DNA from: Amoebophrya sp. A120
Taxonomy: Eukaryota; Protista; Dinoflagellata
Assembly (NCBI GenBank): GCA_905178155.1
Contig: CAJINV010000017.1
Span: 1,046,722 to 1,110,721 of the forward strand
Reading direction: 5' to 3'
DNA length: 64,000 nt
Each line of letters opens with the position of its first letter. Positions within the stretch are counted from its first letter, which is position 1. Made by a program: the position numbers and the translations under genes. Below are positions 29,601 through 52,145 of the stretch, piece by piece. The notes under the pieces are model-generated. The model worked only from the letters and a program-made list of their open reading frames with translations. It did no database searches and was not told the DNA's origin.

Positions 29601-31459
29601 GAAAAAATTCCAACCCGTACTTGCTCCGAAAAGACAGCAGTATAGTGGAAGAGTACACCTCGCTTATTGGGAAGAAAGCAGAGGCCGAAAGCATCAAGAA
29701 ACTTGGAAGTCGAATGGGCAGAAAAACATCAAATCCAAAAGTAAAAGAGTCGAGTTTGAGTTGTACTACACCGGCGGGAGAAAGTCACAACAAGAATTTC
29801 GCTGCTGCTGATGACGGTGTCGGCGGAGCAGTGAACGTCAAGAAAAACGACCTGCAATCTTCCGCAGCGACCACATACACGAGCACCGCAACTTCGCCTC
29901 ATGCTGTTGACCCCGGTACGACGGAGCAGTTTGAACTACAACTACCGAAGAAATTCCGCGACGTCATCCAAAATCTGCAGGAAGAGCTTAAACTCCGCGA
30001 CACGCGGATCGCGGACCAAGACGCCGTGATCTCTGCGCTGCAGGAAGAAGTAGGGTTTCTGCGGAGCAGTAGACAAATCTTTGTTAGTAACGCCACAGCA
30101 GAACGGGAAATCAGAATGGGGGCTGATCATCAACTACATGCTGAGCAGGAGGTGGAAGCTACAAATTCTGGCGTCAGTAAACACGTCTTGCCGCCCGAGA
30201 ACATCTCTCGAGAAAGCCCACCAGCTACAGAAGCACAGCAGCAAGGAAAGGATAGGGAGGCAGCGATTGCCAGTTCTCCGCCACCGTCCCAGCACCAGCA
30301 GTCGCCGGAAGGAGCGATAGATGCTTCTACGACCTCACGCGCTCTGTCACGACAAAGTAGCGGCAAGCGACTGGTCTCTTCCCCCTACAGCGGTCGGGAT
30401 TTACTGTCCGAGGCGAAATTGGTATTGCAGCCGGGCGGGCAGCACAACAGGAACAGTGATCATGCGACGTTGTCCGATGATGCAGGTATTTCCTCTGCAG
30501 CTGGAGTGGCCGAGGATCTGGATGTTTCCGGAGTCAGGAAAGATGAACGTACTGCGGGAACAGCTGGTACGCCGCAGGAAGAGTGTGCAGAAGTAGCAGC
30601 AGAAGGAGTTGTTGTAGAGAAAAATAACTACGACGAGCAGGCAATCGCCCGCCTTGCCCACGAACGCGTCCAGAAAGTGATCGAACGCGCGGACTGGCAC
30701 ACGCGGCAGCAGCGGCAGATCGAAATGCGATCGCCGAAAAACCTGCAGCTGCACAAAAAAGACAAAAACAAAATATCGTTTCCAACTGCTGGAGAAAAGT
30801 CGCAGTCCGCAGCAGATACTGCAGCTCGACTCGATATTACCCAGGGCGGGGCTACTTGTAGCACTACTTCTTGTGCAAAACTTCGCGTGATAAGCCTGAT
30901 GAGTCCCCCGACGCCGAACTCTATTTTTGGTGCGGCTGCAGCCCCGCCAGGAGACCGATTGCTCGCGAAAGCCGCGGTTGGAACGCCCGCAGTTGATGTT
31001 GTCGGGGCTGAATCTTCAGTGTCGTTTCTGACGAAAAGTAGAGCTGACCATGCTGCTATTGGCGCGCCAGAGCCAAACCCAAAAAAGACGAAGAACGCCT
31101 GCAGCGTCGATAAAAGTACTGCTGTAGCGAACATGAACTGCAATCCCGCAGCTACTGGTAAAGGCTCTAATGGTAATGGTACGGGACCACGACCAGCAGG
31201 TACGCGACCTGCGGCTGTAACGTCTTCAATAACGTCAGCCAAGTCCGGTACTGCAGCAGCTGCTTTCAGCGATCCAAGGAGCGTCATGAGGGACTTCCAC
31301 CAGAAAAAAGCGAAGTCCTCAACCGCAGCACCAACTACCGCGGGAATGGAAAGTGGAGGGAGAAAAACAGGCAAGAAGCGGGAGCCACCCGCGGGCTACG
31401 CTGCTTACTTGCGCAATTTCGCAAAAAAACTTGCCAAGGAGGGGCATAGTGTTTTCTAG
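26633..31459 (+). CDS. Large low-complexity protein with a coiled-coil segment; 2 exons (26633-28664, 28935-31459)
   Basis: The 704-aa and 823-aa ORFs are in the same frame and are joined by removing 270 nt (introner plus TSD): RR|FHTRARTRG. Confidence 0.65.
28665..28929. mobile_element. Introner (gtctgggtctggaa family)
   Basis: TIR tatcaaatgtaaaagtgtctgggtctggaaga...tcttccagacccagacatcacttttgcacttgata. Perfect TSD CAGAT. Confidence 0.92.
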
Positions 31460-32031
31460 TCTTGTGCGGAGCGCCGGCTGTTTTTGAAAAAAATAACCAA
31501 TTGCACTATCTACTTCGTGCGTCAGGCTCAGGTTAGTCCACATGCCATGTGATAAAGCACGCCACTGACGGTTTTTTGAAGCAAGGGAAACGTCATCTAC
31601 CGAAGTTGTATGTGTATCTGCGCTTTTTTTCCTGCAGAGATCGCCGCCAGAAGATATTCAGTTGATTTCGAGATTCTCCGGTTTCATCTTCTATTGCAGC
31701 CTCTTGCTGTTCAACGACGTTTCTATCTTCCCCCCGGGCGACACCGCACAACATTTGTTCCATTCTGTCCATTTACTCGGTCCCGGAGATCATCATCATG
31801 ATCCCCGACTGTAGTTGTGAACAAGAATTTATTTTTTCAATGCAGGTCAACAGAACTAATACTGAAGAAAAGGATGGAGATCACTCAACTGCTCGGTCAA
31901 CAGATCCAAGATGAAGATCTAGATCATCTCTCTTGCGCATTTCTTCATCATCTCACAGATACCGAGCTACTCTGTTGTTCACCCCGTACATGATTTTATT
32001 CGATTTATAGGTATTTGAACTTTGTTTTTGT

Positions 32032-32436
32032 TATAGCCTGCTCAGCTGTTACAATCTCAACTGTTACAATAGAATTTCACTTTTTTCATGAAAAAAATAG
32101 CTATTTAAAAACTAAATAAAAAATTAATTAATTCTTAATGAAAAATTTGTAAATTTCGAAATTTTTCGTCTCCGCCGAAACTGTCGATTTGGCCGTCTGC
32201 GACGACTGGAGCCGCCGCGATTATGATAGGAAAACTTGCTTCCAACCTCACCAAAAGTCAACATGACAATATGAAAATGCATGACCAAGACCATCTGCGA
32301 TATATCGCAGATGGTCTACGAAAGAATATGAAGAGTGGTTGACTTTTGATGGTGTGGGAGGCAAGTTTCATTTGCCAATACTATTGAAGAACCGGCTGCT
32401 GACCAGGCTGTTTCCTCGTGGCTGCGTCTAGGAACG
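32032..32436 (+). repeat. Left TIR of the giant element
   Basis: Reverse complement of 49668-50072. Starts TATAGCCTGCTCAGCTGTTACAATCTCAACTGTTACAATAGAAT. Confidence 0.95.
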
Positions 32437-33468
32437 GCACCCAAACCCCATAGGATTCCGATGATGTCACTTTGGTCGTTTTGTCCGGCTCTTTTGCGGA
32501 GCCCCAAGATAAAAGTGCTTTAAACCCTAACTCGCATCTTTGAAGGGTGTGCTGGTGCTATGAATGAAAAAAATTGTAGGATGTAGTGGCGCTGGTGCGG
32601 AATGAAAAAACTTGTAGGCTGTGTTGGTGCTAGTTGATGATAGTACTACTCCTGATATTGAAAAAGATGCAAAGTAAAAACATCGGGTAGATCAGCATGT
32701 AGCTGAGGCTCTGGAGGGTTGTTTGCGTTGTTGTAGTGTAATCGTGTTCATTTAAAAACAAACGCTTTCGTCACCGAATACAAACAAGCAACTACAACTA
32801 CATCATCGCAAAAGCTCTTGCTCATTTTGTAATCGAAAGTGTCAAACAGCTCTCACGACCTCCTCGCAGCTATGATCGATGACGATTGAACGTCTTCGCT
32901 GGTTGTTGCATTGTTACACTTTTTGAACGAGATGGCAAAAGGTGCGAGCGAGATGATGACGAGAACGAGGACGCACTCTTGATGTCGTGGGACGTATTTT
33001 TTTCTTGAGATTTATTATACCGAGCCAACGCGTTTTGTGGTATCATGGCTACGATCACACTTGATGAAGAAAAGCTGCTATTTTTGTATTAGAATATCAA
33101 CACATCCTCCTGCCCCATTAATTATCAAAAAATTTGAAAGCGCGCCACTACTTCGAAATCATCTTGCCCGCACTTAAAGCGCCACCCTATTTGTAGGAGT
33201 TGGCTGTTATGGTTTTTATTCCAGCTTTTGAACACGTCTTGGTCAACTACAGTGCGTCGGTTTTTTTCTTTGATTGAAATGAAGCTTCATCTCCTGCTAG
33301 TACAAGTAGCACCATGCGACATTGTCTCCGTCATCTCGTGTTTGTTTCATCTTTCGTTGTCAATGCTCAACTCAATCAAAAACCGTAGCAGCTGTTGAGA
33401 GAGACCCTCGAGGCAAAAAAACTTTCCAAAACTACCCACGTGTTGCTCCGTGCATCAAAAGCACAAAG

Positions 33469-36261
33469 ATGGCGAATCGCAATAACAACCCGCTGATGTT
33501 GTTAGGCAAGTCTGCCAAAAACACCGGCAACAACGGCTGGAAGAAAAGCCTGAAGCACTTCACCCAGGCCGAGGGTGAGAATTTGGTCAAAGTCATCCAG
33601 ACCAACGTCATCGACTTGAGCAAAGCCGTCAACGGTGGCTGGACCCTGTTGGACAACCTGCCGAACAAGAAGCTGACCAAGGAAGGCGGCGCCGACCGTA
33701 CAAATTTTTTTTATTAATAGCTACATTGTTATCTTTGGTTTTTGTTGATAATGAATAGTAGGTGGAGGTAGTTCAGTGAATAGTACTTGTTGCATCAACA
33801 TGCTTTGCATCATCACAGCGTCATCATTTTTCTTGAGAACGCATGTTACTTACGAACAAAAATTGATTTCAATTTTATTCAATATCAACACCACAGAACT
33901 GGGCGACATTGCGTACAACACCCAGATCCAGATCCTCGCCACTGGTTCCGAGCAGTCCGCGCAGGATGTGGCCAACGCGTTGCCCACCGAAAGCCACTGC
34001 CTGTTGGCCTGGCGCGCGATGGGCGTCGACATCTTCGGGGTACTTTTTTTTTCTTGATCATGATGCAGCTGTGACGTAGTTGTGTATTTCGTTCTGCGTG
34101 TGAATGTTGGTTCTATCAGCATGAGTAGTACTACAAGTACTGGCTCACCCAGCTGGTGCTGCTGGTGCTCTTGTTGCATGCAAAATTTTTTTAAATCTCG
34201 TCCTCCATGACCACTACTTGTACTATTGCGTCATCACTTCATCTTACATGTCCGTGCGCTTCAATCTTTAGATTTTTTTCATGACCAAAATTTGAATTTG
34301 TAATTGAACATTATAAAAACACATCATCCAGCCGCCGCCGAAGGATCAGATCCTCGACAACTACAACGCGCAGTACACCTGCAAGCACTTCATCCAGTCC
34401 ATCAACAAGCCGGCGTGGCGCGCGGCCATCAATAACGTGGGTGCGATGAAACTGGTGGACCAGGCGAAGGCGGCTGCCGAATTGGACTACAAGAACGCCG
34501 CCGAGCGTAAGGCCGAGGGTACGAAAAAGCGCACCCGCTACCAACTGAAGGACAAGGTGGTCAAAGAATTGGGCCAGGAGTACTACGATCGCATGTTGGA
34601 GGATGACAAGCGGGCGGAGAACAACGGTAACATTTTCAAGAGCCTGACCGGCCATCAGATGGCGCTGCAGGACCGCCCGTGGCAACAGCAGCTGGCGTTG
34701 ACCAACGGTTCCCACATGCCCAGCGCCTCGAGCCAGTTGATGCTGGCGAACGGCCACGCGAACCACCAGCAGACGCACCACCAGCTGACCAACACTCCGC
34801 TTCCGCATGCCCTGGACATGCCGCAGCAGATGTTCAACCCGGTCAACAACCTGCACGGCATGGCTGGCATGTACAACAAGCAGGCCGGTAACATGTACTT
34901 GAACGAAGGAGCGTACAACGCGCAGGACATGATGATGAACAACCGGCAGCAGTACCCCGCGTTCGATCCCAACATGTTGCCGTCGCGCCCTGGCGGTCTC
35001 GGCAGCGGCCAGAACGCGATGCTGGCGATGCAGAACATGCACATGTCCCAGCAGACCGGCGGTTCCCAGATGGTCAACACCCAGATGGTCAACTCCCAGA
35101 TCAATTCCCAGATGAACGGCTCCAAGTCCACCTCTGCCACCGGTCCGTATGGATCCAAGAGCACCCTTGTTGGAGGTGGTGCCAACGCGGGGAAGAAGAA
35201 GCCGACGAAGAGCCTGAAGGGACAGACCGGCTTGACCGATGAGCCGTTCAACTTCACCACCTACCAGGATGACGAGGCGCAGGTCGTGGACACCGCGTGC
35301 GCCGGATCGCAGGCCCAGGAGTTTGCCATGCAGCAGATGATGATGGGTTTGAAGGGTGGCGCCAAGAAGACCGGTGGAAACGGTGCTTCGTCCTCCTCGA
35401 GTTCCGCTTTCGTGAACAAGGGTAAGGGCAAGGGGAAGAAGCTGGCCCCGACGCCGAAGGGTCCGCTCGACGGGTTCGTGGGCGAGGACGACGACTTTAA
35501 CATGGATGGTTTCGAGGGCGAGGAGGATGGTTCGGAGGAGGACGACGAATCGGACGAGACGGAGGAGCAGAACGGTAAGAAGCAGCCGATGAAGAAAGCT
35601 ATGAAGAAGATGATGGCGATGAAGAAGGACGCCTCCACCTCCGCGTCCAACAAGAATTCCGGGAAGCCGGCGAAGGCGACGAAGAAGGGTGTGGACAAGT
35701 GCGCCGAGTTGCAGAAGCTGCTCGCCAAGGGCACCGCGAAGTCCACCGTCGTCAAGAACGGCAAGAACGGCAAGAACGGCAAGAACAAGTAAATCCACAC
35801 CTTCGGTGCCTTCATTGTGTTGATTGATGATTTACACTGCGATGGAAAAGCTTAGAGTACTAAAAAACTACAACGTCGCTCGCTTTTTCTACATACTCGA
35901 CGTAATTCTACTTCGAAACGGAAATATAAGTAGTATAAAACGAAATAGTAAAGCTGTGTCGTCGACTAGTAGTAGTGCGTCGCGCTTCGATTGTCAGACT
36001 TATCAATAACGGCACGAGGAGGCTATATTGATACTACTAGTTTGATAAATTTCTGCAGCTACTAGTAGCCAGCATCGCGTTTATAATTTTCCTACTAATA
36101 AAACTTACGACTACAACATCTCCAGGTCCTGTCCATCGTGCAAGAAGCTTGACTGCAAAAACTTCCTGCGCTCCGATTTAGTCAAGCAAGCCATCGACGC
36201 CTCCTCCGTCTACCGCAACTACATCTTCTCCAATGGTTTGGCGATGAATTTCAAAATGTGA
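33469..36261 (+). CDS. Element-borne protein of unknown function; exons 33469-33697, 33897-34039, 34332-35788 and probably 36126-36261 (otherwise stop at 35792)
   Basis: GT-AG introns join the exons in phase (GAD|QLGD, IFG|PPPKDQ, KNK|SCPSCKK). Very strong C/G-ending codon bias. Q/N/M-rich, acidic and K-rich tracts. Confidence 0.7.
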
Positions 36262-38851
36262 GGAGCATGAAGATGTTGTATGCGCGATGACAATATCACT
36301 TATTAAGAAAAACAACTTCTACTATGACTACTAAGACACCACCACTGAAGTGCAGCTGTTTAAAAATATCACTTCGCTCATTTTCGGAAGTAGTTGTTGA
36401 GAAATAAAATGAAAAATGAAAATTATTTCAATCGTGAGAAGATGAAGAGAAGTATAATGTTGGTAGAAGTATTTGCGATTGTAGTGCCCGACTTGTGTGT
36501 AGCATCTACAGCAGGTCTCCTTCTACGTCCTATACACACCGACATCATCACGCGGCGAAAACAATACCGACGTGAACGCGTCATATTATTTATTGGGTGG
36601 GAATCGCGACAATCAATATCAGAATCACTACCGAGCGAACCACCAATCTTTGAACTAACTTTATTGATATGTGGCTATGTTGTTTCTTAGTTGTATTTCG
36701 TTGAACCGATTTGCTTTATTGGTACCGAATAACAGAAGAAGACTTGAAGCTGCATACCAGTAATGATCTGCTGTATTTCGCAATTCGATTTTAGCACGAC
36801 CGACAACAAACATCATGTAGATATTTTCCAGACGAACGACGACGACCACTACCACAGCGATCTCGTTAGCCGACTGATTTTTATTTACAACGCAGTATAC
36901 TAGATCACAGCGCCGAAGTTGTGGGTCACTTGGCTCGCATCTTCATCGACGGTCTCGAACACTTTTGATGTTTCGTGTCTTGTGCGCGGTGCAGCGCCTT
37001 TTACTACTGCATGCCTTTCCTAGTCACTTCTCAGCTTGTAACACTTTGACACTACGCGACGTCATCATCCACCGCTCTTGCTTTTGTTTTCTGGACAATG
37101 GCTGCGCAGGATGTGATGGAACTAGGTGGATAAAGTGCTAGTAGCTCTTGAGGTGACTTTGTATTGTTGATGAGCTATTGTTTGGGAATATTCCTCAGCA
37201 CTGTAGAACTTCCCCTACCACGACTTTTGCTACTACTAGCCAGGGGGTTGGTAGTTTCTATCACGCTATAATTTTCCTCCACCTTCTCTAAAAAGTAAAA
37301 GTAGACGCCAAAGTAACAGCATCGCCACGAACCGCGCTTCATCATCAAGCAGCGGCTGTTCAACTTTTCAATTCTATGTAAGGCTGAAGGCGCTGATGAT
37401 AAAAAGATGAGGCGCGCGCCTCATGTTGTTAATGTGAGGTTGATAAAGTTCTGATGTTGTACTAGCAGTTTACTTTTATCTGTGCGATGTAAAATCCCAG
37501 CCCCAGCTTCAACTTCTGCAGCCTCTCCTACAATCGTCACCGTTGTAATCCGCTACGTCAGCAGCTGTTGCCGTTATTTTATTGCTTCTCTACTGAGATA
37601 TAGTAGTATTTCCTCGGACAGTTGCGGCAGTGGATCGCCGTCGGTAAAATCTGGTACCTTGAGATAAACAACTACTACACTGCACAGATTTTTGATGACT
37701 TCATGTATAATTTGTCTATAGGTTGACGCTGCCACGCACTTTTATCATCATATGCCGCGCAGCTTCTGCAGATAGAAGCAAGATAGCAGCTGACCTGTAG
37801 TTCGCTTTTATTTAATGAACCAAATATCTATGCGAGTCATCTATTATGTGGCGCCTCTTACTTTCATCTTGCTTTCGTATCCCGTAAGTAGATAGGGAGA
37901 AATGGCCTGCACTTTAAAGCAGAGCAGCTGCTGAATCAATGCAAATGTTGTACCGCCCGCAATTCGCCAGAGGTGAGACTCAGTGATGTAGTGTAGATCT
38001 ATGCCTGAGGAATGCTGATCACGGGAATTGTAAGCAGTTTTATAAAAGTGACTGCTGGGTGTGAAAAATGATGCGTCGTCGGCACCAGCATGGTTGTCGT
38101 AATCGCCAGCGCCGTGTCGCTCGTGCGATGTTTGTGTCGAAAACATTGGCCATGCTGCTGCAGCTGTTCGTCATTAATTCTAAATCGATGTTGTCGGTGG
38201 AGGTATGACGATGATCGAGTCGGTATATCTGCTGCACTGCAGCTCGACGTGCTTCGTCATCTTCTCTGCATCATCTGGCCAGGTAGGTCGTGGCATCTTG
38301 AACAGGCAGAACAAGAGCTAGCTGCTGCGCTGCAGATAATCGTGGTCGGTTCGTTTTATTGCGTTGTCGCTATCGGATTTGCGGCACATGAGCGACGCAC
38401 CCCTCACCAAAATCGCAACTCGAGTGCTGCGAGAGATAGAAGTACCAGAATCGGCCGCGTTTGTTGTTGCAAAAGTAGAACTCGCGTTGAGAGATGAAGA
38501 TGAAGACGAGCAAGACGAGACTGCGGCGTGAGTAGTTGCAGCTCGTCACCAGCTACATATGCAGCAAGTGTTACTTCATCATAAAATCTACCAGGTTAAG
38601 ACAAGGAGCGGATAGAAATGATTGTCGTGCTCCTGCGAGAGTGATGAAAAGGTGCGCACAAATTACAAACGGCGCCTGTAGCCCCCCCCATTGACAAGAG
38701 TGCATGCGAGTATGAGCAATAGCATCAGCATGAAAGCTGTAGAAATAGAGCATTAGCTGCTTCTACACGAGCTCTTGTTCATCTTCAAAACGACTGCTGT
38801 TTATTTTTATTACGTGCAACTACTTCTATCTTTGTGCAATTTAGATTCAAA

Positions 38852-41800
38852 ATGCCGAAACGAGCTGGCGCGAAGCCGCCTCCTCCGGCTCCCATGCCCA
38901 TCGCAGGCTTTGACCCTCCGGTGAACCATCAGCAGCAAGGTCCTGCTCCGGAACTACCACCGATAGTGCATGTTCCGGAGCCGCAAGTTGGTTTAGCAGG
39001 TGCAGCTGCGCGACCGGTGCATACCATCGATGTGCAAGGTGTCCAAATCAACAAATCCCGCTACCTCGCCAGTCGCGCTACCAATTGGGGCGAGCCGATA
39101 CGCGATCCCGTTGGCTACAAGATAAGATGGAGAGTCAGGTCCCTCTCCGCTTCCACGAATTTCTCGTACTGGCGGCAAAACACGGCACCGGAATTCATCC
39201 GCAGTAAGTACAACCTCGGGCGCAACGCGATTCCTTACGAGTGCAGTACGAAGGAGCTGGTCTACTGCTACATGTACTGGAAATCGTTGGACCAGGCGAT
39301 GTTCCGGGCGAAGTGGGACGGTTGTCCGTTTCTGAACCACCTCGAATCGATCTGGAGGGAGGACTGGCCCGATGAGCCGGATGGTGTGAAGATGTACATC
39401 GCGATGTACAAAATAGAAGAATGGGCAGACCAACACATGAAACAACTGGGTCGCGATGCCAGCAAGTGGAGAGATCAGGTATTGCTACGGCAATAGCATC
39501 CACTGCGACTCATGAGCACCATAATTGCATTACAGAATCTTCAAAGTGAGACGAAGATGAATTTTTATACACTCATGCTCACCACCTCCACTCTTGATCT
39601 TGCTGGGCATGATATTCGTCTTGGTTTCATTTGTGTTTAGAAGTAGAAGTGAAGATGACGCAGTTGTTTTTGCGCATGACAAATCTGAAACCACCCTCAA
39701 CTTGTCAGGAATACGCCTTGCGGCGCTATTTTACGTTCGCGGCATTTCTCCGGGACCAAATGTGGAACGATATGCCGAATCGCGGCAAATACATCAAGGA
39801 GATAATCGATATGGCGCCATTTGCTTTGCAAGGTGACGTCGACGAGCTCAAGAGCAACATGTGCGCGCTGAATTGGGATTATTCCACCATTTACAAGAGA
39901 CACGTCTACGGGGCAATTGTATAGTAGTTTTTCTGCGCCTTGTGGCGGTCCTGCGTGAATAATAGAAACAACAAGAATGAACAACTATCCTCTTCTACTT
40001 CATCTACTTGCTCTTGTTCTATGCAATACAAAAAAGCATCTTCATCGTCGTGGTCCAAGGACGTAGCTTTTCATGCTATGGAAACATACATAACTCGTCC
40101 CACGCAACCAACTTTCAGGCGACTACGATCATGCAAACGAAGATCGACAACACCGTCCCGATGCAGGTGCTGGACGAAATTGAGAAAATCAACCGCTCGT
40201 GCGAAGAATTGGCTCAGGTTCCGTTGGCGTTTCAAGAAGCGGGGGCGGACGTCATGCGCAAGAGGGAGGACTACGAAGCATGCAGCTACAGCGCTTCGAA
40301 CATCCTGGCCATGTGTTCGCATTACATGGGCTCCGATTTGATCGAGACAATCTACGAGGACACTCACACCACATGGCGCGAAATGAAAATCGACTCGTTG
40401 CTGGAAGAGACCAGGCAGAATACCCGGACCAACGCAGAAATCCACCTCCACTCGGATCAGGGGAGCCCGGAGTGTCGCTGTGCCCAGCTCTTCCACTGTC
40501 ACGCGCCAGGTGTGTGGCGGCTCGAGATGGCGCACCGACTCGCGAACGACGTGTATCAAAAGAAACTTGCTTGCGGCGCCTCCAGCATGACAAATTGCAA
40601 TTTTTGATGCATCTAAGGCAGCGCAAGTCTATTTTCTTTTGATACAAGCGCTGGCCTCCTCCCAGAATGGGAGGAGGCCGCGATTTGCTGGAACAGTTTC
40701 TGCGAAGGACCTATGAAGAAAAAAGAAAACCAAGGACGGTTGCTGGCAGCGCAGCAAGACGCTGTCAAGCTTGCCAAAAAGGAGCCGCGCAGGGTCAGGG
40801 CCATGAAGTGGGCTGCGGAAATGACCAGAGAAGCAGGAAAAGGAAAAACACCAGCTGACGCCCTGTCTATACGTATTTTCTCATTAGATTTTACTTTCAA
40901 AGTGCTTGCTTTTCATGAAAAGTCGTAGAATTCTCAAAAATCTGTGATTTTTCATCAAAAATCATTGATTTTTCATCAAAAAGCGTTGATTTTTGTGCAT
41001 TTCATCACAAAAAGCGCTGTTTTTGTAAAAACCGTTTCACGATGGTACTGCACGTTTTTGATGCATCCGATACAATCAAGATTTCTTAAAGTGAAAACTG
41101 AATGAAAATCTAATGAAAATCTAATGAAAATCTAACGAAAGCAGGTTTTTTCTCTATTACGAATTCTATTACAAAATACCTCAGCTCTTCGCATGCTCCA
41201 CGAAACCAAATGCCGGTGGCACCGCACGAGAATGCTCATGCTTTCCATGCAGACTTGCATCTATCGCCTCCTCTTCGTCTTGCACCTCATGATTCCGGAC
41301 GAACTGCGTGCGAAAGTTTCCGAGGTTGAGGTCGAGAAAGTGTTGACAAACCACCGCTGCGGACAGATCGAGTCGCTTGACGATGATGACGACGAAGCAA
41401 TCAAAAAAGTGAAGGATAAGGACGGCAAGAAGTGGCAGGGCTACCCATCGGAGATGTCAGACCGTCTCGAGAAGCTAATCTGCCCCTTGAAGCGGGAGAT
41501 CGCGGACGCGCTTACTCGGCGGCATTTCGCCTTTCACGTGCTGCTTGAGGCGTTCAACGGTTGTGCTTCCTTCGAGTCCCCCTCAACCTCTCTCGAGCTC
41601 GTGGAAACGATGCAGGAGGTGCTGGATCCCAGCGCCCGTCTCGGTTCCATCTATCGCACAACCAAAATCCAGGAACTGATGTCGGAAAACCGTCACCGCA
41701 TTTGGCAATACGTAGGCGCGGGTGCTTGCCAAGCACACGGCACGGGGCCGGTGGACTGCAATGAAGCAGAAGCGCCAGCAATGAAATTGCTAAGCCGCGT

Positions 41801-44800
41801 CGTCAACAACAGCATCATCGAGCAATATGATCCGGCTTTTGGTCTTTGGGAGTCGTTCAGCAATGGAAGAGTCTACATCTCCTCCCAGGATGCGGCAAGA
41901 ATCGGAGATATGTCTGCTTTCCCCCTGTCGGTCTCCGCGAAGCGAAACGTCTATCAATGTGAAGAATTCGCGCTACCTCCACCAGCAGCAGAAGCAGCGC
42001 AAATAAAATAATATCTGCGTCCACTGGACGCAGATATTATTTTATTTTGCTGATGAAGAAGATGCAGCTCATCATCTACAGCAACTTCTTCTTATCTAAA
42101 TGTGTGTTGCACGAGATGAGCACGACGAAGCAGAATGCAAATTTGTGATGCGCGAGATGATCACTCTAGCATAACGAAGGACATGAGCAAAGTGACAATA
42201 TTAGTACTCGTCAATGACGAGTACTAATATTCATCTTCGTCAGCTTCTGCTGGTGGTGGTGGTAGCGCGAAACTTTCGTAGTGATACCGGCCGGGCGATC
42301 AACGATGACCGGGAAGAATGCATCACTATCTGGATCATGAACGTCATCAAGAGCTTCCCCCTCTTCGGTAAAGAACTAGAGCGGCAGTTTAAGGACTCGA
42401 GCTCGCGCCTCTCCAAGTTCTGCACTGCAGTGAGCAACATGACCTCCAAGCAGTTAGACCGGCTGCGGGTCTTCGCCAAACATGTAAGGTTCGCAACCGT
42501 TCCGTTGGCGAAAAAGTCTGCAGTCGCGTTACCGGAAGAACTGGGCCGAGCTGTGACGGAATCGGAAATGGCGGATAGCAGCGCCGATCAGTTTTGGGAC
42601 TGCCTCAGTGAGAAAATTGGCAGTCGCGGCATTCCGGCCGGCGCCGATTCTGATACGGGAACGAAAAAGGGATTGAACCGCACCCGCAATCTCACCGCCG
42701 CGTTTGATAAACTGAAAAACGACGGTAAACGGTTCCACGAAGAGCACCACCGGCGGTCGAAACGAGGACTATCTGGTCCGGAGGACAAGATCCTGGAGAC
42801 GGTCCGAAACGGTGAGCACAAGTCAAAAAAGCCGTGTGATCTGTGGGAGCGTGGAGCAATGACGTACGTGTTGCTGAAGATCGCGTTTCTGTCGAGCCGG
42901 ATGCTGGACATCTTCGAGGCCTGCGGCCGACTTGTGGTGGAGGAGCGCGGCTACATCAAAGCCTTCAGAGAAAACCCGAACTTCCTGCTGTTCGTACTGT
43001 GTCCAGCTTTGTTGTGGGAAGGCCAAATAGTCCGGGTTTTGAAAGTGAACAAATTGGGATACTGGGGTGGAGTGCTGATGAAAACGACGACCAATGCGAA
43101 GAGCCAGTACGTCGCGTCGCTGGCTGCCAAAGGAGACTGACCAGGTGACTATCGTGTGCGGGCACTTTGCTGTCTCCGATATCTTCGACGGGGTGCACAA
43201 TCGCGAGAAAGTGTTCGATGAAGACACGAAGCGCAACCACGTCGAGTGGACTCTGCTAGACGACATGTACATCACAAGCACCGACACCTTGCTGAACGGC
43301 TTTCCCCTGCAAGAAGATGAGCTGCAGATGGGGGCGATGGACCCAATCATCAAGCACTGCAACGAGGATGAAGAAATTGTCTACGCAGTGCAGAACAAAA
43401 TCATCCCGCCGGTCACCGAATTCACGCTGGAGCGGCTTTCAAAGGAAAACCGCGAATACGTGTACTTGTACACCAAATGGCTCGAAGGCGACATCACTGT
43501 TGCTCTTCTCGACCACATCGACAAACTTTTTCCGAAATCCTCCGGACAAGTACTTGAGCAAGGTCCGAGAGGGCTGCAGGCCAGGTTGATCGATCTTTCT
43601 GCTGGGTCTTTGGAGAAACAGCAAGGCCTCGGTCGTCCCGCGGGAGGAAAAAACGTGATGAAAATGCTGAACGTCACTCGCCAACCGCATGGCATCTGCT
43701 TTCGTCTCATGGATGATAAGAAAAAGCGCGTCTACTGTGAATTTCGCACAATGCGGCAACTGCAGGGAGAGAAGTCAAAGCGGGAGGGTGAAGCTGTACT
43801 GGGTCCGGCAGCCCGGTCACAAGAAAGTCCACGCGCCGTTTTTTGCAAAATTAGCACCGTCCATCGAGTACGCGAGTCTTGATTTGCCGGACAACATCGC
43901 GCGCCGCCTTGTTCCGTTTGGATTAAAAGAGTTTCAACTTCTTCCCGTACAAAACCCGCGTCTTTTTTCAGTCAACGTCGAAAGCGGAGACTTGGAAACC
44001 GAATACCCAATACCCGCAGAAGCATACAAGCGTGCCGCGGGAGAAGAATGCGCAAAAAGCAAAAAAGCGCAATCCGAATATCAGAAGGCTATTCAGGAGG
44101 TCATCGCGAAGGAGAACCTAGAATGGGCAAAATATTTGGAAAACTACGAAGAGGAGCGAGAAAATGATGAGGATGTTGACGACGACGACGACGATGAGTG
44201 CGAAGACTGTGTTGAGGAAGATGATGATGAAGGCGGGGACGATGACGAGAACGAGGTGGACGAGGACGACGAAGAAGATGAAGATGAAGATGACAATAAT
44301 GAGGACGAGGAAGTAGATGGAGAAGACGACGACGACGACGAAGAAGATGAAGATGACGATCAGGAGGACGAGAACGACGACGAAAGCGAAGATGACGACG
44401 AAGATGATAATCATGGTGGGGATGACGCTGCGCTCGACGGCGACTCGTCGATGAACTTCTTGAACCAGCAGAATTTATTTGATGAACAGTTTTTGGATCC
44501 AGATAACGACAACAACTACCACGGCCGCAATGAAGACGAGGACGGGATTGAAATGGATCAACACTACTACAACAACGCGACGAATACGAGCAACAACTTC
44601 CAGCCCAATCGCACGCAACTGTCAAGCAACATGATGATCCCCTTCAACGCGTTCCAAGCTAGTAGCGGTAGCACCAGTTCGATTCCAGATGGTCCGTGGA
44701 ATAGTAGATCCATGTACGCCAGCAGCAATTATAACAACTACAACCAGAACAATGCTTACTACAGCAACAACCTCCAGTCCGCGTCATCTGCGTCGTCCTA

Positions 44801-45554
44801 TTTTCTCCACCCTGGTGATGATCCCGAGTATATGAAGCACTACGCCGACCACATGGCGAAACACAGCTCGTCGCTGATCAACAATTCCAAGTTCCAGCAG
44901 AAGAACACGAAGTTGAAAAAAGAACAAGGAAATAACTACGATACGACGCTGCTAGGCCGCCGACCTTCGACAAAGATCAAGAAACAACAAACGACAACGC
45001 ACGACGGCGATGTTGGTGACGACGAGGACGAACTCGTTGACGTTAATATGCTGTCCTTGATGAAAGAAGCCAAAGCTTCTCTCCTGGGTGGTAGCAAAAA
45101 GAAGACCAACATCTTGAAGAAGCCGCAGAATCTTGTTGGGCGCGCTCAGAGCGCGACCAAAGTCAAGAAGCAAAAGGACTCGACGAAGGGCCACAGGGCA
45201 GTCGGTCGCGGTGGGGCGAAGGCTGGCACATCATCGTCCGCCTCCTCGTCGGCAGCAGCTGCTGCTCCTCCTGCTGCTGCGTCTTCTTCTTCTTCTGCCG
45301 GTAAAAAATCATCTCTCGCTATGAAAAAACAAAAGCAAGATCAGCAGCTATCGGCATTGAAGAACAAAGCGAAGACTACAACATCAGGCCGAGAAGGTGC
45401 CGGGGACAGCAAGAAGATGAAAGTGAAGAAGCAGGCGAAGCAGGAGAAACAAAAAGCGAACAAGCCAGCACCGAAAGGTTTGCATATTCCGGGCAAAGGA
45501 ACAGTCCCGAAGCTGACTGGTAAGCACGCGATGAAAAAGAAGAACGGCGACTAG
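38852..45554 (+). CDS. Putative DDE (RNase H-fold, hAT-like) transposase with long C-terminal extension; exons ~38852-39478, 39709-39918, 40119-40552, 40649-40872, 41185-41958, ~42266-45554, with two +1 frame discontinuities
   Basis: Phase-compatible GT-AG introns. Ordered motifs ALNWDYST..HVYGAI (D1?), IHLHSDQGS (D2?), EMAHRLAND (C/DxxH-like), KCRWH (RW-like), TTKIQE (E?). It lies within the TIRs. Function is assigned by motif resemblance only. Confidence 0.55.
40554..40644. mobile_element. Short, old introner-like intron inside the putative transposase gene
   Basis: TIR tatcaaaagaaa...tttcttttgata and an internal gcatgaca. The TSD is degenerate, but GT-AG splicing of 40553-40648 (96 nt = element + 5) removes two in-frame stops. 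Confidence 0.7.
42001..42047. repeat. Perfect 23-bp inverted repeat with 1-nt loop
   Basis: aaataaaataatatctgcgtcca-c-tggacgcagatattattttattt. Confidence 0.9.
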
Positions 45555-47362
45555 TACTTCTAGTGCTACCGAGTAGTAGCAGCTACTAACCACGACCACG
45601 ATTAGCGACAACATCACGACTACGATCTTCCTGCAGCTATTCCTCTCTCTTCATCTTCTACTTCGTCTACTTCTGGATCCACTTGTACTGGTGCAAGAGC
45701 TAACTTCTACAACGTCACCCACTACATCACCTTCTACTTGACCGTCTTCGTCTTCCTTTGAAGTAGCAGGGCCCTCGCTCGTCTAATACTACTAGCTGCG
45801 CGCCGTCAGTACTACTACGACTACGACGACGACGATGGCGACGCACTGCTGGTGGTAATTATTTTTAAAGTTTGGCTTTGCCTTTCAGTTGCAGTTGTCG
45901 CGATAGGCTGCAGAAGAACAAGCCTCACCGAGATGCGATCAAGTTTTGCCGATAAATGAAAGCCGCGAGTATCACTGCGGCTCTTGTTCTGGTCTATGAT
46001 AAAATAAAAGTATAACTATAGCACGATACTCAGCTGCAGGAGCTTCATCGTAATTTTTATTTTTATTCGAACACAGAGTCGCTGTCTTGCAGCAGCTGCA
46101 GCTGCACGGCTTGCAGCAGGTGGATTGGTAGCTATCAGCACTAATAGTGCTAGTAGTAACTACGAAGCTTGCTTCGCCGCTTTTATTTTTCACTTTCCAT
46201 CTTGACTTGTTCAGCCTGAAAGCAAGACGTTTGCTCTGTTCTTCACCGTCGACGGTATGTAGTAGCTCATCATTGTAGTGCGCACCCAAAATTTTTATCC
46301 GCGACTTGTTGAAACCAAAAATATAGAAAGTCACCACCCGAAGCAGGGTCGCAACTACGAGTTAGCAGCTGCAACTGCTTTCTGTGTAGCCGCCCACTGT
46401 TTCGAGGATGATGCTGATGAAGAGCTTGTTTATTTTGTTTACATTTAATTAGCACGAAAAGTTTCGCCCACTAGCAAAACCCAAAAATATGAAAATAAAA
46501 ATAAATAAATAAAACAGCTGCGCTTCTAGCTGCACTACTAGAGCTTTTATTTGAATCGGTTTCAGTTTACACAGCTCAGACGTTGATGAACAAAAATAAA
46601 AGTTGCGAGGACTTACTATTGTATGATTATTGAATGCCAGACTTTGCAACACAAATACAATTATATTGAAAATAGTAACGACGTATGATTTTCCTTTAGC
46701 AGGTACCCTTCACAAACAAGCCAGTGCCTTCCGCTGGTGTAGGATTTGATTTTGTTGCACTTTTCTTGCACCTTTATAATTAAAAAAAAGTTCACCCGTG
46801 GTTGCAATATGAATGATAAAGATGAAACCCGAAAACCAAAATCGTCATCAGTACTCCTGGTGGAAGTAGTTGCTAATCTTCATCGTCAGTGCTATCGTCT
46901 ATTTTTGCCGATGCTTCTACTGAAAAATAAAGATAGCCCGTGCTAAAAATTCCGAGAATGAAAAACGAAAATAGAATTAGGTGACAACGACGAGAAGACG
47001 CCGAAATAAAAGCTAGGATGTAAAAACTCAATGCAAAACTATAACTATAGATAAAAAAAGATCAGCCGTCTTCTACTTATAGCAGCGCCGCGACTACAAC
47101 GTCGAAAACAAAAGAGCGACCAGCTCTAGCGCTGCTCTGAGTTATTCGGAAAAAATATCCGCTACTGGTCGACCAATCATCTCGCGTTGATCGGGCCAAG
47201 AAGTAGGACAGCGAACTACAAAGAGCAGAGTCGTGGTCGTCGTCTACCTCCACCTGCAGGAGGTGCAGGAGGAGGAGCAGAGGCCGCGTTGATTCATTTT
47301 TTGAAAAGCGCCAAAACACATATGAATGCTAGTTCTTTGCTGATGTCCTCGCCTGTCGCATC

Positions 47363-48457
47363 TCAAGCTGCAGCAACAGGATTGCGAAAAGGATTGCGGC
47401 CCCACGTTTTGATGGTCGCAATCATTTTTTTCACAATCGCAGCCTCGCCTGCGCTTTCGACGGAGAGGTAGAACTTTTCTAACTGTCCGTCTTCGTTAGC
47501 ATTGCGAACGCCGGGGGCTTCAGGGAAAAAGGATAAGCTTGTCTTGCCGGCTTTTCCAGATCCGCTCAAGTAGCCAAGACGCGACAATTCTTTCCAAGGA
47601 ATCAGAGCGCAACCGTGCAGGCGCGTTTCATTTACGCCGCCACCTTCCGCATTCTCGCGCACGTGCAAAAGCAAAAAATCAATAGGGTCCGTTTCGCAGT
47701 AGGGCTTGCCATCAGACCGGCGCATTGGGCAGCGTAAATTGAGCGGCTTCCCATTATTGTCCCGCCGAGTGCCCAGAACTTTTTCTTGGATAGCAAATTT
47801 GGTGCTGGGCAAATCGTCGCACGTCAGAACTCCGTCTACGCATGTGAATTCATTCTCGGGCGATTCGTAGGTTAGAGAGCCGCGCGGTGCTGCGCCGTTG
47901 TTGATGATTTTCAAAAATTCCCGCCGCGATTGCTTCTCCACCAAATTCGCATTGCTGTAGGCCGAAAAAATAGGTCCATCACCTTCGTCAGGATCGGGCA
48001 CGCACGGATTAATTTCCCACAGGTGTTTCAGGTGGGTATTGATTGCGCTGGCGGCAAAGTTGTTGCTGTCATCATTGACGTCGATCTTGTCGTAATTCTT
48101 TTGCGCATTGACGGACTCGCAAAAAATTTTTTGCGAATCATCTGTGTACTCCTCGGCGCCAGCGCCTCCCGTTCCCTTTTCAAATCCGATAAATGCGTGT
48201 CCGTGTAGAGCCCGCTTTTGCTTTTTTAGAACGTGGCGCATTTTGCGACACCAGGCAGCATCGCGTCGCAGAGTAGCCTTGAGCTGAACCTGCAGCCACC
48301 GGTTGGCTCCACGACGGACTTTCGGACGAGTGTACAAGTCCGCTCGGCTTTCTCTCGATTTTTTCACGTCAAAAACTTGCTCAAGTATAGAGTTTAGCTG
48401 TTGATAGCATTCAGCTTCAGTCATTCGAGCACGCATACCGGGAGGTGGTTGCGGCAT
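47363..48457 (-). CDS. Putative tandem PD-(D/E)xK-fold (QxK variant) endonuclease
   Basis: Intronless 364-aa ORF with two motif sets: E..RADL...WLQVQLKAT and E...VDG...IQEK...PY...DFL...IPWKEL...GYL. Confidence 0.55.
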   Translation of the reverse strand: MPQPPPGMRARMTEAECYQQLNSILEQVFDVKKSRESRADLYTRPKVRRGANRWLQVQLKATLRRDAAWCRKMRHVLKKQKRALHGHAFIGFEKGTGGAGAEEYTDDSQKIFCESVNAQKNYDKIDVNDDSNNFAASAINTHLKHLWEINPCVPDPDEGDGPIFSAYSNANLVEKQSRREFLKIINNGAAPRGSLTYESPENEFTCVDGVLTCDDLPSTKFAIQEKVLGTRRDNNGKPLNLRCPMRRSDGKPYCETDPIDFLLLHVRENAEGGGVNETRLHGCALIPWKELSRLGYLSGSGKAGKTSLSFFPEAPGVRNANEDGQLEKFYLSVESAGEAAIVKKMIATIKTWGRNPFRNPVAAA

Positions 48458-49667
48458 TGTTGAAAAGGTGTATCAATATAATTCAAAACCAAATGCCACC
48501 TGCTCCAGCACAGCACTACTGCTAGGGCCACGGCCACGACCACGGCCACGACCTCTATACTGTTTTCTAATAATATAAAAATTGAAGAAGAGCGAGCTCC
48601 TTTTGCTTAAGTATAGAACTTATTTTTGTATCAAAATATAAATTTTCTGACTCCTTGTTGCGCAAGCCAGCAGCTCCTCAGGCTCGTCGACGACGTCAAC
48701 TACAATTACGCCTCCTTTTTGGTAATGATAATTCTGAATAAGAATTTGAATCACTAACAAGAAGCCTGTGCACAATTATGATAGAAATACCCCCGTAAGT
48801 AATCAAGTATGTAGCGACGAGTTGATGATGTCAGTGGTGGTTTTTTGTGTACATTATAAATGCAAAACCAACAGTGATTGATGAAGATGGTGTTTGCACA
48901 CCTGGCCGCTACTCTCAAAAAGTTTTGCATCACCATCCCGCTCATTGGTGAGAACTAACCTGCCACGACCGAGGACTGCTTTCGCTTTCGCAATTGTTTC
49001 AGCCGAATTTTTGTTGTTGCAAATCAATCGCAACCGAGCTCCCAGCTGCTGCAGACGAGTCTGTAGATCATCTACATCATCAACATCATGCAGCGGACTT
49101 TTTTTATTATCGTGTTCAGTAAATATGAAAAAAGCTTACGACTGCGATCATTCAGAACAACGTCAAAGCATCATCATAAATGAGATTGCTCGAGGTTCAA
49201 GGTCTTTGCTTCAGTATGATCCAGGTCTTGCAGCCGTAAACCATCGGCGTGACTTTGTTGCTGCGCCGATTCCAAAAGTCACCATCTGAACATCTTGAAC
49301 AACAACAAAATTTTCATCATGATGCTCATGCTCGCCGCACCTAGATCAATGACGATGATGATGAAGAAGAAGGTCTACTTGTTGCGCTTCATCATCTACT
49401 TCTTTATTATTCGTTTTTTCATATTCATTTGCTGCGGTCAAGTCCAATTGTAAACGACATGACTCACAACCAACACATTTTCAGCGACCTTGTATCTTCG
49501 CCGCCTCCTCGGGCGGGGTATAAATGCGAGCCCTTTGTGAACTATGTGCCAAAGTCGAACATAATTACAACTACTACTGCCATTACTATTTTTCACAATG
49601 TCCTCCTTGCTCGTCCCACCACCGCAAAGATCCGCCACCGACAGGAGGGCTCGATTTCAACCCCCGG

Positions 49668-50072
49668 CGTTCCAAGACGCAGCCACGAGGAAACAGCCTG
49701 GTCAGCAACCGGTTCTTCAATAGTATTGGCAAATGAAACTTGCCTCCCACACCATCAAAAGTCAACCACTCTTCATATTCTTTCGTAGACCATCTGCGAT
49801 ATATCGCAGATGGTCTTGGTCATGCATTTTCATATTGTCATGTTGACTTTTGGTGAGGTTGGAAGCAAGTTTTCCTATCATAATCGCGGCGGCTCCAGTC
49901 GTCGCAGACGGCCAAGTCGACAGTTTCGGCGGAGACGAAAAATTTCGAAATTTACAAATTTTTCATTAAGAATTAATTAATTTTTTATTTAGTTTTTAAA
50001 TAGCTATTTTTTTCATGAAAAAAGTGAAATTCTATTGTAACAGTTGAGATTGTAACAGCTGAGCAGGCTATA
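49668..50072 (-). repeat. Right TIR of the giant element
   Basis: Reverse complement of 32032-32436. Ends ...GATTGTAACAGCTGAGCAGGCTATA. Confidence 0.95.
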
Positions 50073-50448
50073 TTTGTCAATTCTTCATTCTACAATTGTT
50101 CGTGTTCCTACTAACAGACCAGGCCTTTCTGTCAGTTAAAGGCGCATTGCATAATTAGTAGAACGAAAACTATGATTTTTGCTTACCTCGCTGACGAAGC
50201 TATTGACACGTCCAAATCGAGTAGATCTTGTCTCGATACCTTGATTTTTACCCTGACTTGACTGCGTAAGTATTTACACCATTTGTTGTTTACCACGACC
50301 CTCTACTTACAACTACTTCTCTAGTCTTGGCTTCAACTTCATGATCGGCCTTCTTTACTAATTGAGCACCCTCAACGTCAAGCCTTCTGGTGCCTCTTAT
50401 TGTTGTAGCTACCCCTTGTCTATAATATTTCTACCTTCCATTCTTTTG

Positions 50449-51256
50449 ATGTTCGCTCCCACGTCCAGCACATCCGCAACCGCCCGCGTCCGCCTCACGC
50501 AGCTCGCCCAACAGATCACCAGGAAACCTAGCGGCAACTTGACGATTGGCAAGACTCCGCTCCTGACCTCCGCCAGAATGGTCGCTAGCAGCTCGTCTTC
50601 CACATCCTGGCTGAGGGGCACAGCACAGGAAAGCGTGGACGCAGCAATTCGAGACAAGTACAACATAGAACTGAACTTTGAGTTTTATCGACATTGCGTT
50701 TATTTATTTTTTGCACGCGAAGTAGCATAAAATATTACCACTTGACGTTGACGCCCTCCTAATGTTTGCCAGCAATAAAAAATCGAAAAACAGCAAGCTG
50801 GTCGTTTTTTCGAAGGAATGGTGCCCCTTTTGCCGTAAAGCCAAGGATACGCTGCAGACGATCCTCGACAGCGACACCACGAAGTACAAAGTCCTGGAAC
50901 TTGAGTCTGTGGACCGACGGTCGCTGGTGGCCCCCCTGCATCTGGACGACATTCAGGACTATTTCAAGCAGCTTGCGGGCACCCGCACCGTGCCCAAAGT
51001 TTTTCTGGAGGGAAAGTGCCTCGGCGGCGGGGACGAAATGGTATCCATGGCGCGCACGGGCCAGCTGCAGGCACTGCTGAAGGAAAGCGGGCTCTTAGCT
51101 AGAAACGACGCCGGCGAAGAGCAGAAGAGCGGGAACGGGGGCGCGGGGCAGGTGAAGGCGGCGGCAGGAGGGCAGAATGTCCGCTATTTTCGGAACGGGG
51201 CAAAAGTGGAGAGACCCATTGAAGGGCTTTCAGCATTTGCGGCGGCCTCGAAATGA
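50449..51256 (+). CDS. Dithiol glutaredoxin (CPFC) with an N-terminal extension resembling a mitochondrial presequence; exons 50449-50657, 50794-51256
   Basis: VVFSKEWCPFC, RTVPKVFL..KCLGGGDE. One GT-AG intron at 50658-50793. Confidence 0.85.
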
Positions 51257-52145
51257 TCTATCAAATGAACAATCTTCGAATGCACCAGCGCCAAGTAGCA
51301 GCTCCCTGTAGCACTACTGCGGTAGAGATTGAACAAAAGGAAAAGCTCAAAGTGGTAGATTGCGTGAGATTGTATATCCACAATGGAACGTTTCACCGCA
51401 TGTTGAGCCACGACCTGGGTGGTGGTGCTGGCGGTCTTGTTCTGAATACGTGAAGATCGCTCTTTGGTGGAGCAGGAACCTAGTGGAAATAAGTGGTCGT
51501 GGTTCTACTCAGCCTAAGTGATCGCTTGGAAGATAAACGGGCGTGCTTCTGTCTCAGAGTCTTCTTCAGTGACGTGTAAAAAGAAGAAGCATGTTGAATT
51601 ATCGTCTCGCCTGTTTGTTTCGTTGTGGAAGTGTAAGAAATCGTGCTGCTCTGACTGTTCCTGTTGTAGTAGATATTAATAATAGAATATGGGTCATCGT
51701 CCAGCAATCGAGAAGGGGAAGATGTCGTATGAGAGTGCACAGCACCCTCTTCTACTCATTTGAGAGGCATGCCACCGCGTAGCATCACAGACGACATCGG
51801 AAATCTTGTACTATTGTCAGGTTTGGGGCTCTGGACAAACGTGCTACTGTTACTGATATGGAAAGATATGTCGTAGACGAACTACATTTTTCCTTGTCTC
51901 GGGTCGTCATCGTGAGATTAGGTTCGTATCGAGTAAGTCGATAGATACGTACTATTGACCAGTTGGCTCATGTCTGCCTATTTGGATGGAAAGAGTAAAG
52001 GCAAGAAGGCTAAATAGCAAATCTACTAGTATTAAACTACCGAAACTGCGCGCCGGCAGTATTTCTATTTCGAACATTTGAGCTTCTTTCCTCGTAGTAC
52101 TACACTGTGAGGCCTTTTATAAAGCGACATAGCCGCATCTCCAAA

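Follow-up and report, generated by a model that had tools for sequence, protein, structure and literature searches.

An 18-kb, three-gene inverted-repeat element in Amoebophrya sp. A120 shares its terminal 44 nucleotides with one family of introners

The DNA analysed here (the window) is a stretch of 64,000 nt from the dinoflagellate Amoebophrya sp. A120 (GenBank assembly GCA_905178155.1, contig CAJINV010000017.1, positions 1,046,722 to 1,110,721, forward strand). The introners of this genome were described by Farhat et al. 2021 as elements of about 240 nt with inverted-repeat ends starting with TAT, border direct repeats of 3-5 nt, hairpins and non-canonical splice sites (PMC7789003). The window contains, at 32032-50072, a giant element of 18,041 bp that has TAT...ATA termini, a perfect 5-bp target-site duplication (TSD) on both sides and three long coding genes. 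Two general features of class II transposons, terminal inverted repeats (TIRs) and a TSD, are present. The two TIR arms are identical at 402 of 405 positions, the mismatches falling at TIR positions 157, 365 and 399. A first-pass annotation of this DNA had described 405-bp TIRs with about 3 mismatches, a TTTGT TSD and TAT...ATA ends, all of which were borne out. The element is laid out as follows:

32027-32031, no strand: left target-site duplication, TTTGT
32032-32436, plus strand: left TIR, 405 nt, starting with TAT, at twofold depth in sequencing run X1
33469-35792, plus strand: gene 1, three exons (33469-33697, 33897-34039, 34332-35792), about 610 aa
38852-43140, plus strand: gene 2, six predicted exons (approximately 38852-39478, 39655-39918, 40119-40553, 40644-40872, 41185-41951 and 42286-43140, as read from the sequence), about 1,057 aa up to the first stop
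43136-45554, plus strand: gene 2 carried on as coding sequence in two other frames, acidic and then N-rich with a K-rich tail
47363-48457, minus strand: gene 3, intronless, 364 aa
49668-50072, minus strand: right TIR, 405 nt, the element ending in ATA
50073-50077, no strand: right target-site duplication, TTTGT

Four of the nine listed sequencing runs (X1, X3, X4 and X7) were compared with positions 31050-51049. X1 is a public DNA run, and X7, from another study, is RNA by guess (it skips a GT..AG host intron). The X3 contigs were shallow and gapped, and X4 amounted to 8 reads over 20 kb. The element interior (32402-49704) was recovered as one X1 contig of 17,303 nt with 0 differences and 0 gaps, a 206-nt repeat at 44214-44419 having been skipped in the comparison; this contig reaches into both TIRs, by 35 and 37 nt. 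In X1, depth was 40.8 in the interior, 45.6 and 42.1 in the flanks, and 90.4 in the TIR contig. Since the interior has a flank-like depth and the TIR contig about twice that depth, the data fit one element copy with two TIRs. The X1 flank contigs enter the element ends by just 30 and 28 nt, where our bridging rule was 31 nt. The right junction was bridged by an X7 contig that reaches 44 nt inside the TIR, and no 31-nt bridge of the left junction was found in the four runs. As far as contigs can tell, the 18-kb element is genuine and not an assembly artefact. Moreover, TIR arms that are 0.7% apart support a recent insertion. No Rfam match was found in 31000-51000.

It had been suggested that TIR copies would be found elsewhere in the genome and that an empty TTTGT site might exist in other reads. 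The four runs contained no joint corresponding to an empty site and no second near-identical giant (at least 85% likeness). The first suggestion nevertheless held in part, as at least two diverged long-TIR arms (about 82-89% alike) are present elsewhere in X1. One contig of 328 nt has 36 differences in about 327 nt, and a second has 17 differences in 109 nt; these two have several changes in common and may be arms of one sister element or of two. A third TIR start, on a contig of 3,431 nt, has 20 differences in 113 nt. All three are at single depth, and we conclude that the giant has sisters. The TIR pattern gave 0 matches in viral contigs.

The outermost part of the TIR is also found in a family of much shorter elements, one of which lies in the window:

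32032-32075, plus strand: terminal 44 nt common to the giant and the ~250-bp introner family, with a doubled GTTACAAT motif, 15 nt apart
25557-25808, no strand: introner of this cognate family, 252 bp, 73-nt arms, TSD TCCCG, inside a host reading frame

The first 44 nt of the giant match the right end of the 25557-25808 introner at 40/44 (BLAST E 1.65e-10), in agreement with the first-pass annotation, and its left end at 37/44. When this introner and one TSD copy are removed, a host open reading frame (ORF) of 352 aa results. In X1, the summed depth of the 44-nt end was 36,690 over 39 contigs, about 900 times single-copy depth, a value that is not a copy number because overlapping contigs add, and that points to a large family. 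Outside 32032 and 50072 the contigs carrying this end have diverse, unrelated flanks, and their loose ends past 32075 read like introner body. In metagenome contigs, a 28-nt end motif picked out 30 loci (L001-L030), all from one assembly. These contained 31 long matches, 30 of which had TAT...ATA ends. The 30 full-length family members were 249-272 bp long and 80-92% like the window introner, and 23 had a perfect 5-bp TSD.

As a control, we catalogued elements with TAT...ATA ends and a TSD matching at no fewer than 4 of 5 positions in these loci and in the window, which gave 162 short elements in 13 families plus 19 singletons. Under these stricter rules the cognate family had 23 members, with a mean match to the giant's end of 38.2/44. 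In contrast, the means of the 12 other families were 12.5-18.8/44, and the singletons matched at 10-20/44, except three at 28-32/44. The loci were fetched by the cognate family's own motif, which inflates the family count and leaves the identity contrast unaffected. These comparisons support a family-specific tie between the giant and one high-copy introner family, through the 44-nt end, the TAT/ATA termini and the 5-bp TSD.

The three singletons at 28-32/44 are sister short elements (L004 2940-3174, L004 7500-7748 and L022 5163-5423), and two of them have the CAACTGTTAC variant that the giant has. Young TSD-flanked introners numbered 0 inside the 18-kb element and 10 in the remaining 46 kb of the window, as would be expected if the element is a newcomer and not local DNA that was captured. 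The idea that two adjacent introners captured the host DNA lying between them was considered separately and rejected, as the TIR goes on beyond the shared end for another 361 nt that is not introner sequence, and sister TIR arms occur elsewhere.

Gene 2 is the one large gene of the element. It consists of eight pieces (38852-45554), of which 8/8 were coding in frame by codon score, and its first stop is at 43138-43140. Three of its five introns are GT-AG introns, and two are TAT...ATA hairpins:

40554-40644, no strand: hairpin interrupting gene 2, 91 nt, TAT...ATA, no TSD; z -5.0 against mononucleotide shuffles
41952-42286, no strand: hairpin interrupting gene 2, 335 nt, TAT...ATA, flanks 3/5 alike; z -12.2

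Both hairpins lack intact TSDs and do not resemble the abundant introner families; they would be old introner-like introns. In the predicted protein, a candidate series of motifs was assigned by eye: D270, D410 (in HSDQG), H436, W529 (in CRWH) and E730 (in NSIIEQ). H436 lies 26 aa after D410, with E433 three residues before it, and W529 and E730 follow in order. The HSDQG motif resembles what we take to be the second-D motif of integrases, but there is no E at +35. Similar motifs occur in transposase-like proteins of other dinoflagellates, which gives a lead only. Transposases of the hAT and Mutator-like element (MULE) groups have a (C/D)xxH motif at a distance of 15-45 aa from the second D, on its downstream side, and a W ahead of the E (PMC5499845, PMC5225508). 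The same D, D, H, W, E order in gene 2 hints at a hAT/Mutator-like DDE transposase. If the motif assignment is right, all candidate catalytic residues would lie upstream of the two frame switches described below. In the first-pass annotation the element held a putative transposase, a nuclease-like gene and an unknown spliced gene; three coding genes are indeed present, while the two functional labels rest on motifs, with no database match.

Taken together, the shared end and the content of gene 2 lead us to propose, with moderate confidence, that the giant is a single, recently inserted member of a low-copy family of giant TIR elements, and that the transposase of this family likely mobilises the ~250-bp introners in trans. 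The ~1,057-aa gene 2 product is predicted to be a highly diverged cut-and-paste transposase of the DDE type. This enzyme would bind the doubled GTTACAAT motifs in the outer 44 bp, which are likely its binding sites, would make its cuts at TAT/ATA and insert the element with a 5-nt stagger, and would also move ~250-bp passengers bearing the same ends. The introners would then be passengers resembling miniature inverted-repeat transposable elements (MITEs), which retain just the end signal and survive in exons by splicing out via the hairpin at non-canonical sites. Autonomous and non-autonomous members of a transposable-element family are usually alike in TIR sequence and TSD length, as stated in the review passages used here (PMC5499845); because this sharing holds here, and family-specifically, it is counted in favour of the proposal. 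The copy in the window need not be the active source, as it looks silent and is frame-shifted past its first 1,057 aa.

Several observations weigh against this proposal. Beyond nt 44, no homology to the giant was found in 30/30 family members except chance-level matches of 13-34 nt. Gene 2 contains two +1 frame switches, near 43107-43145 and 43780-43860, with no intron-like gap; they are in the DNA, as the X1 contig is gapless there, and could be mutations, mini-introns or recoding; at the first switch, 43111-43144 (34 nt, GT..AG) is a candidate mini-intron. Three residues ahead of H436 the motif has E where the pattern calls for C or D, and a loose D/D/H/W/E pattern is easily met by chance in 1,057 aa. 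No homologue was found for exon C or for exons C-E read through (7,998 candidates scored), nor for exon F among 1.84 billion representatives; there was no match to gene 2 in Pfam, NCBIfam, PHROGs, PDB or viral contigs, and the ESM Atlas gave nothing usable (best 0.84, <0.9, and unrelated). An AlphaFold model made without an alignment was uninformative (pLDDT 37). X7 had no depth on most of gene 2, and X4 provided its 8 reads per 20 kb. The 5-bp TSD of the giant departs from the 8 bp given for hAT (PMC5499845) and from the 8-10 bp (PMC5499845) or 8-11 bp (PMC6446971) given for Mutator/MULE elements. Finally, an alternative mobiliser has been published, the Ginger-like integrase suggested for A120 family fam38. 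As for the empty homology searches, they used single exons or read-through and not the spliced protein, and 59-64% of proteins in this lineage are unassigned according to the text of the genome paper (PMC7789003); they are therefore weak evidence. As a separate observation, both frame switches coincide with or are close to short homopolymer stretches (AAAG; a T6 run).

The giant was compared with known systems. Mutator/MULE elements have TIRs that are hundreds of bp long, and they carry additional ORFs, matched by the 405-nt TIRs and three genes of the giant. The hAT and MULE groups also include autonomous elements with MITE partners that have the same ends, in addition to the candidate motif order assigned to gene 2; the giant differs from them in the absence of a Pfam or PDB match for gene 2, in the E in place of C/D before H, and in being far larger. 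Polinton/Maverick elements are 15-20 kb long and have a 5-6 bp TSD. They are alike in size class, in having several ORFs and in their long TIRs, as summarised in the parts of the literature covered (PMC6431247); however, no PolB, integrase, ATPase, protease or capsid match was found in the ORFs scanned (12, 8 and 8 per scan). Family-library scans of the giant's ORFs also gave no rve or integrase match of the kind expected from a Ginger or fam38-like element. Transib elements have a 5-bp TSD, as the giant does, and CAC termini, where the giant has TAT. Transib belongs to the hairpin-forming hAT/MULE/RAG group, according to the review sections cited above (PMC5499845), and no RAG1 or Transib match was found in Pfam or PDB.

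Published work bears on how the TAT-type introners of Amoebophrya move. In its passages on introners, the genome paper reported no A120 transposase by RPS-BLAST against Repbase domains, rejected transposase-driven spread (general transposase-mediated mobilisation being held 'ruled out') and described no large element with introner ends (PMC7789003). The short elements in our window fit the TAT-end and direct-repeat signature given in the same passages (PMC7789003). Gozashti et al. 2025 classed most A120 introner families as TIR DNA elements; in 57 of the 58 supplement rows, the superfamily was 'Unknown' for 55/57 families, fam38 being assigned to Ginger and fam65 to Mutator (PMC12130899). By its supplement entry, fam12 (331 copies, 252 bp, 72-bp TIR) is like the 25557 introner in size and TIR length, and fam38 has a 5-bp TSD, like the giant, with TA/TA ends (PMC12130899). 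Neither the text passages nor 57 of the 58 supplement rows name a multi-gene partner of 18 kb, and fam135 (4 copies) has an alignment that extends to position 18,837 (PMC12130899). The preprint of Roy et al. 2023 (2020), in the portions consulted, mentions neither a transposase nor Amoebophrya. Within the literature covered, which left bioRxiv supplements and introner consensus files outside its scope, no description of a large Amoebophrya element with introner ends was found.

With ends that match one introner family and not twelve others, the giant makes introner mobility directly testable. Elements of this kind would likely supply the long-missing enzyme that spreads the introners, with gene 2 as a testable candidate. 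A candidate gene that has no database relative and is interrupted by five introns, of which two are introner-like hairpins, would explain why the transposase was missed; should gene 2 prove to be a transposase, a new DDE lineage is likely. An autonomous element with MITE-like partners is a known kind of system, and there is a real chance that this one belongs to a new superfamily. More tentatively, the giant may belong to a superfamily not described before, of which it would be the first member observed: multi-gene DNA transposons of about 18 kb with TAT ends and a 5-bp TSD, whose transposase is the missing engine of non-canonical introns in Amoebophrya, numbering in the tens of thousands, with a cognate giant for each introner family. 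It is possible, at about the same tentative level, that the transposase of such a superfamily is too diverged and intron-broken for library searches and that the engine is itself introner-invaded, even in its TIRs.

An alternative that we regard as possible, if rather doubtful, is that the giant is a non-autonomous cargo carrier resembling a Pack-MULE, that genes 1-3 are cargo, and that giant and introners alike are moved by a third enzyme, for example a Ginger-like integrase. None of the giant's genes has transposase homology, the element is single-copy, and gene 3 has a homologue of 33% identity in another eukaryote's proteome; long TIRs with cargo are typical of Pack-MULEs (PMC6446971), and the supplement entry for fam38 combines the 5-bp TSD and TA/TA ends with Copia/Gypsy-like ORFs (PMC12130899). 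However, Pack-MULEs are mostly 1-2 kb long and contain gene fragments, in the account available to us (PMC6431247), whereas the giant has three long genes in 18 kb. The fam38 copies, at about 808 bp, would be too short for a full integrase-type transposase, and the interior without young introners (0 versus 10) and the transposase-like motif order of gene 2 also speak against the giant being a mere carrier.

It is improbable that the copy in the window is itself an active master from which the ~250-bp introners arose by internal deletion, an idea that is already largely refuted. The 40/44 terminal match, the same termini and TSD and the near-perfect TIRs would agree with it. The first-pass annotation had expected derivatives grading into ~250-bp introners, and no such series was seen. 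All 30 members were unlike the giant past nt 44, their best interior match to it was 28-30 nt (E 0.004), and 11 ORF pieces of the element gave no tblastn match in the 30 loci. The introners thus have the end signal in common with this copy, and simple deletion within it does not account for them. At a likeness of 85% and above, contigs of intermediate length were also absent from the runs, as was the second near-identical copy noted above. Moreover, family members are 8-20% apart from each other, more than the two arms of the giant (0.7%), so the introner family is older than this insertion. Gene 2 showed no expression in X7 or X4, X4 having 8 reads. A search among runs also listed no RNA run with 38500-48480, which says nothing either way on expression. 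What stands of the earlier proposal of a parent or close relative is a recent, family-specific close relative; a role as parent or master is not supported for a single-copy element whose likeness to the introners ends at nt 44.

An assembly artefact or chance pairing of a repeat is very improbable: although the window itself may derive from X1, only 30 nt bridge the left junction and the TSD is in a tract rich in T, the artefact objection raised at first pass is countered by the single X1 contig that enters both TIRs, the twofold TIR depth, the X7 bridge at the right junction, and a TSD length and termini that obey the family rule.

The other two genes of the element were also characterised. 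Gene 1 has GT-AG introns, as read from the sequence, a GC content at third codon positions of 0.86-0.88, a strong codon bias, and a low-complexity C-terminus rich in K, N and Q; family-library scans gave no match above cut-off, no homologue search having been made, and the gene had no RNA support. Gene 3 had one homologue (P0003) among 2,331 candidates (E 6.6e-37), in which both of its E...D...QxK motif sets are kept. Its label as a candidate nuclease follows a pattern, E...D...(E/Q)xK, that we take to be PD-(D/E)XK-like. There was no match to gene 3 in Pfam or PDB and no relative among viral contigs; a single-sequence AlphaFold model was of low confidence (pLDDT 33), and the two halves of gene 3 were not detectably alike (hhalign probability 2%).

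The TIRs themselves contain hairpins, and the right TIR borders a host gene:

32222-32380, no strand: hairpin nested in the left TIR, TAT...ATA, without a remaining TSD; the right TIR has the same sequence at the corresponding place
49725-49886, no strand: hairpin in the right TIR, 162 nt, fold z -9.2, skipped (AT..CG) in an X7 contig as an intron within the TIR
50449-51257, plus strand: host glutaredoxin gene, 377 nt downstream of the element, whose X7 contig reaches into the right TIR

An X7 contig joins 49474-49724 to 49887-50058 (depth 21), omitting 162 nt with AT..CG ends. Splice ends of AT, CT, AC and CG are common in the A120 introner families of the supplement rows covered (PMC12130899). 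There are zero mismatches between the left and right copies of the hairpin, which is likely an old introner inside the TIR, the arms having likely been copied from one another after its arrival. The X7 contigs (window 49474-51049) continue from inside the element through the right TIR into the glutaredoxin gene, although contigs cannot reveal strand or prove a single transcript across this region. The insertion may now supply the upstream transcribed region of the glutaredoxin gene. Three tandemly oriented glutaredoxin-like host genes occupy 50449-54550 (the Pfam check covers the first). Further introner-like insertions, at 53916-54066 and 53245-53462, lie in two more glutaredoxin-like genes, the former being flanked by a direct repeat of about 19 nt and not by a simple 5-bp TSD.

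Nine further short elements with TAT...ATA ends and 5-bp TSDs, from at least five families, are present in the window:

4940-5245, no strand: short element
6482-6801, no strand: short element
22704-23008, no strand: short element
23056-23317, no strand: short element
28665-28929, no strand: short element
58701-59013, no strand: short element
59384-59494, no strand: short element
59593-59850, no strand: short element
60037-60292, no strand: short element

Seven of these nine have relatives in the 30 loci. Because the families are alike in termini and TSD length and unlike in TIR sequence, either several cognate giants or one promiscuous enzyme would be predicted. An open-frame test of the cognate family members was uninformative, as all three removal lengths passed in 22/22. 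The 9-mer GCATGACAA occurred at 3.9/kb inside the 162 short elements versus 0.47/kb outside (about 8-fold), across families; the giant's TIR has no full match to it, and the nested hairpin has one at 40585. This 9-mer may be a shared splicing or mobilisation signal. Lastly, a palindromic element at 15781-16021, at the end of a host ORF, has GC-rich arms of 89 nt that are 93% complementary and a 63-nt spacer; its ends are not TAT...ATA, and it therefore represents a different MITE type.

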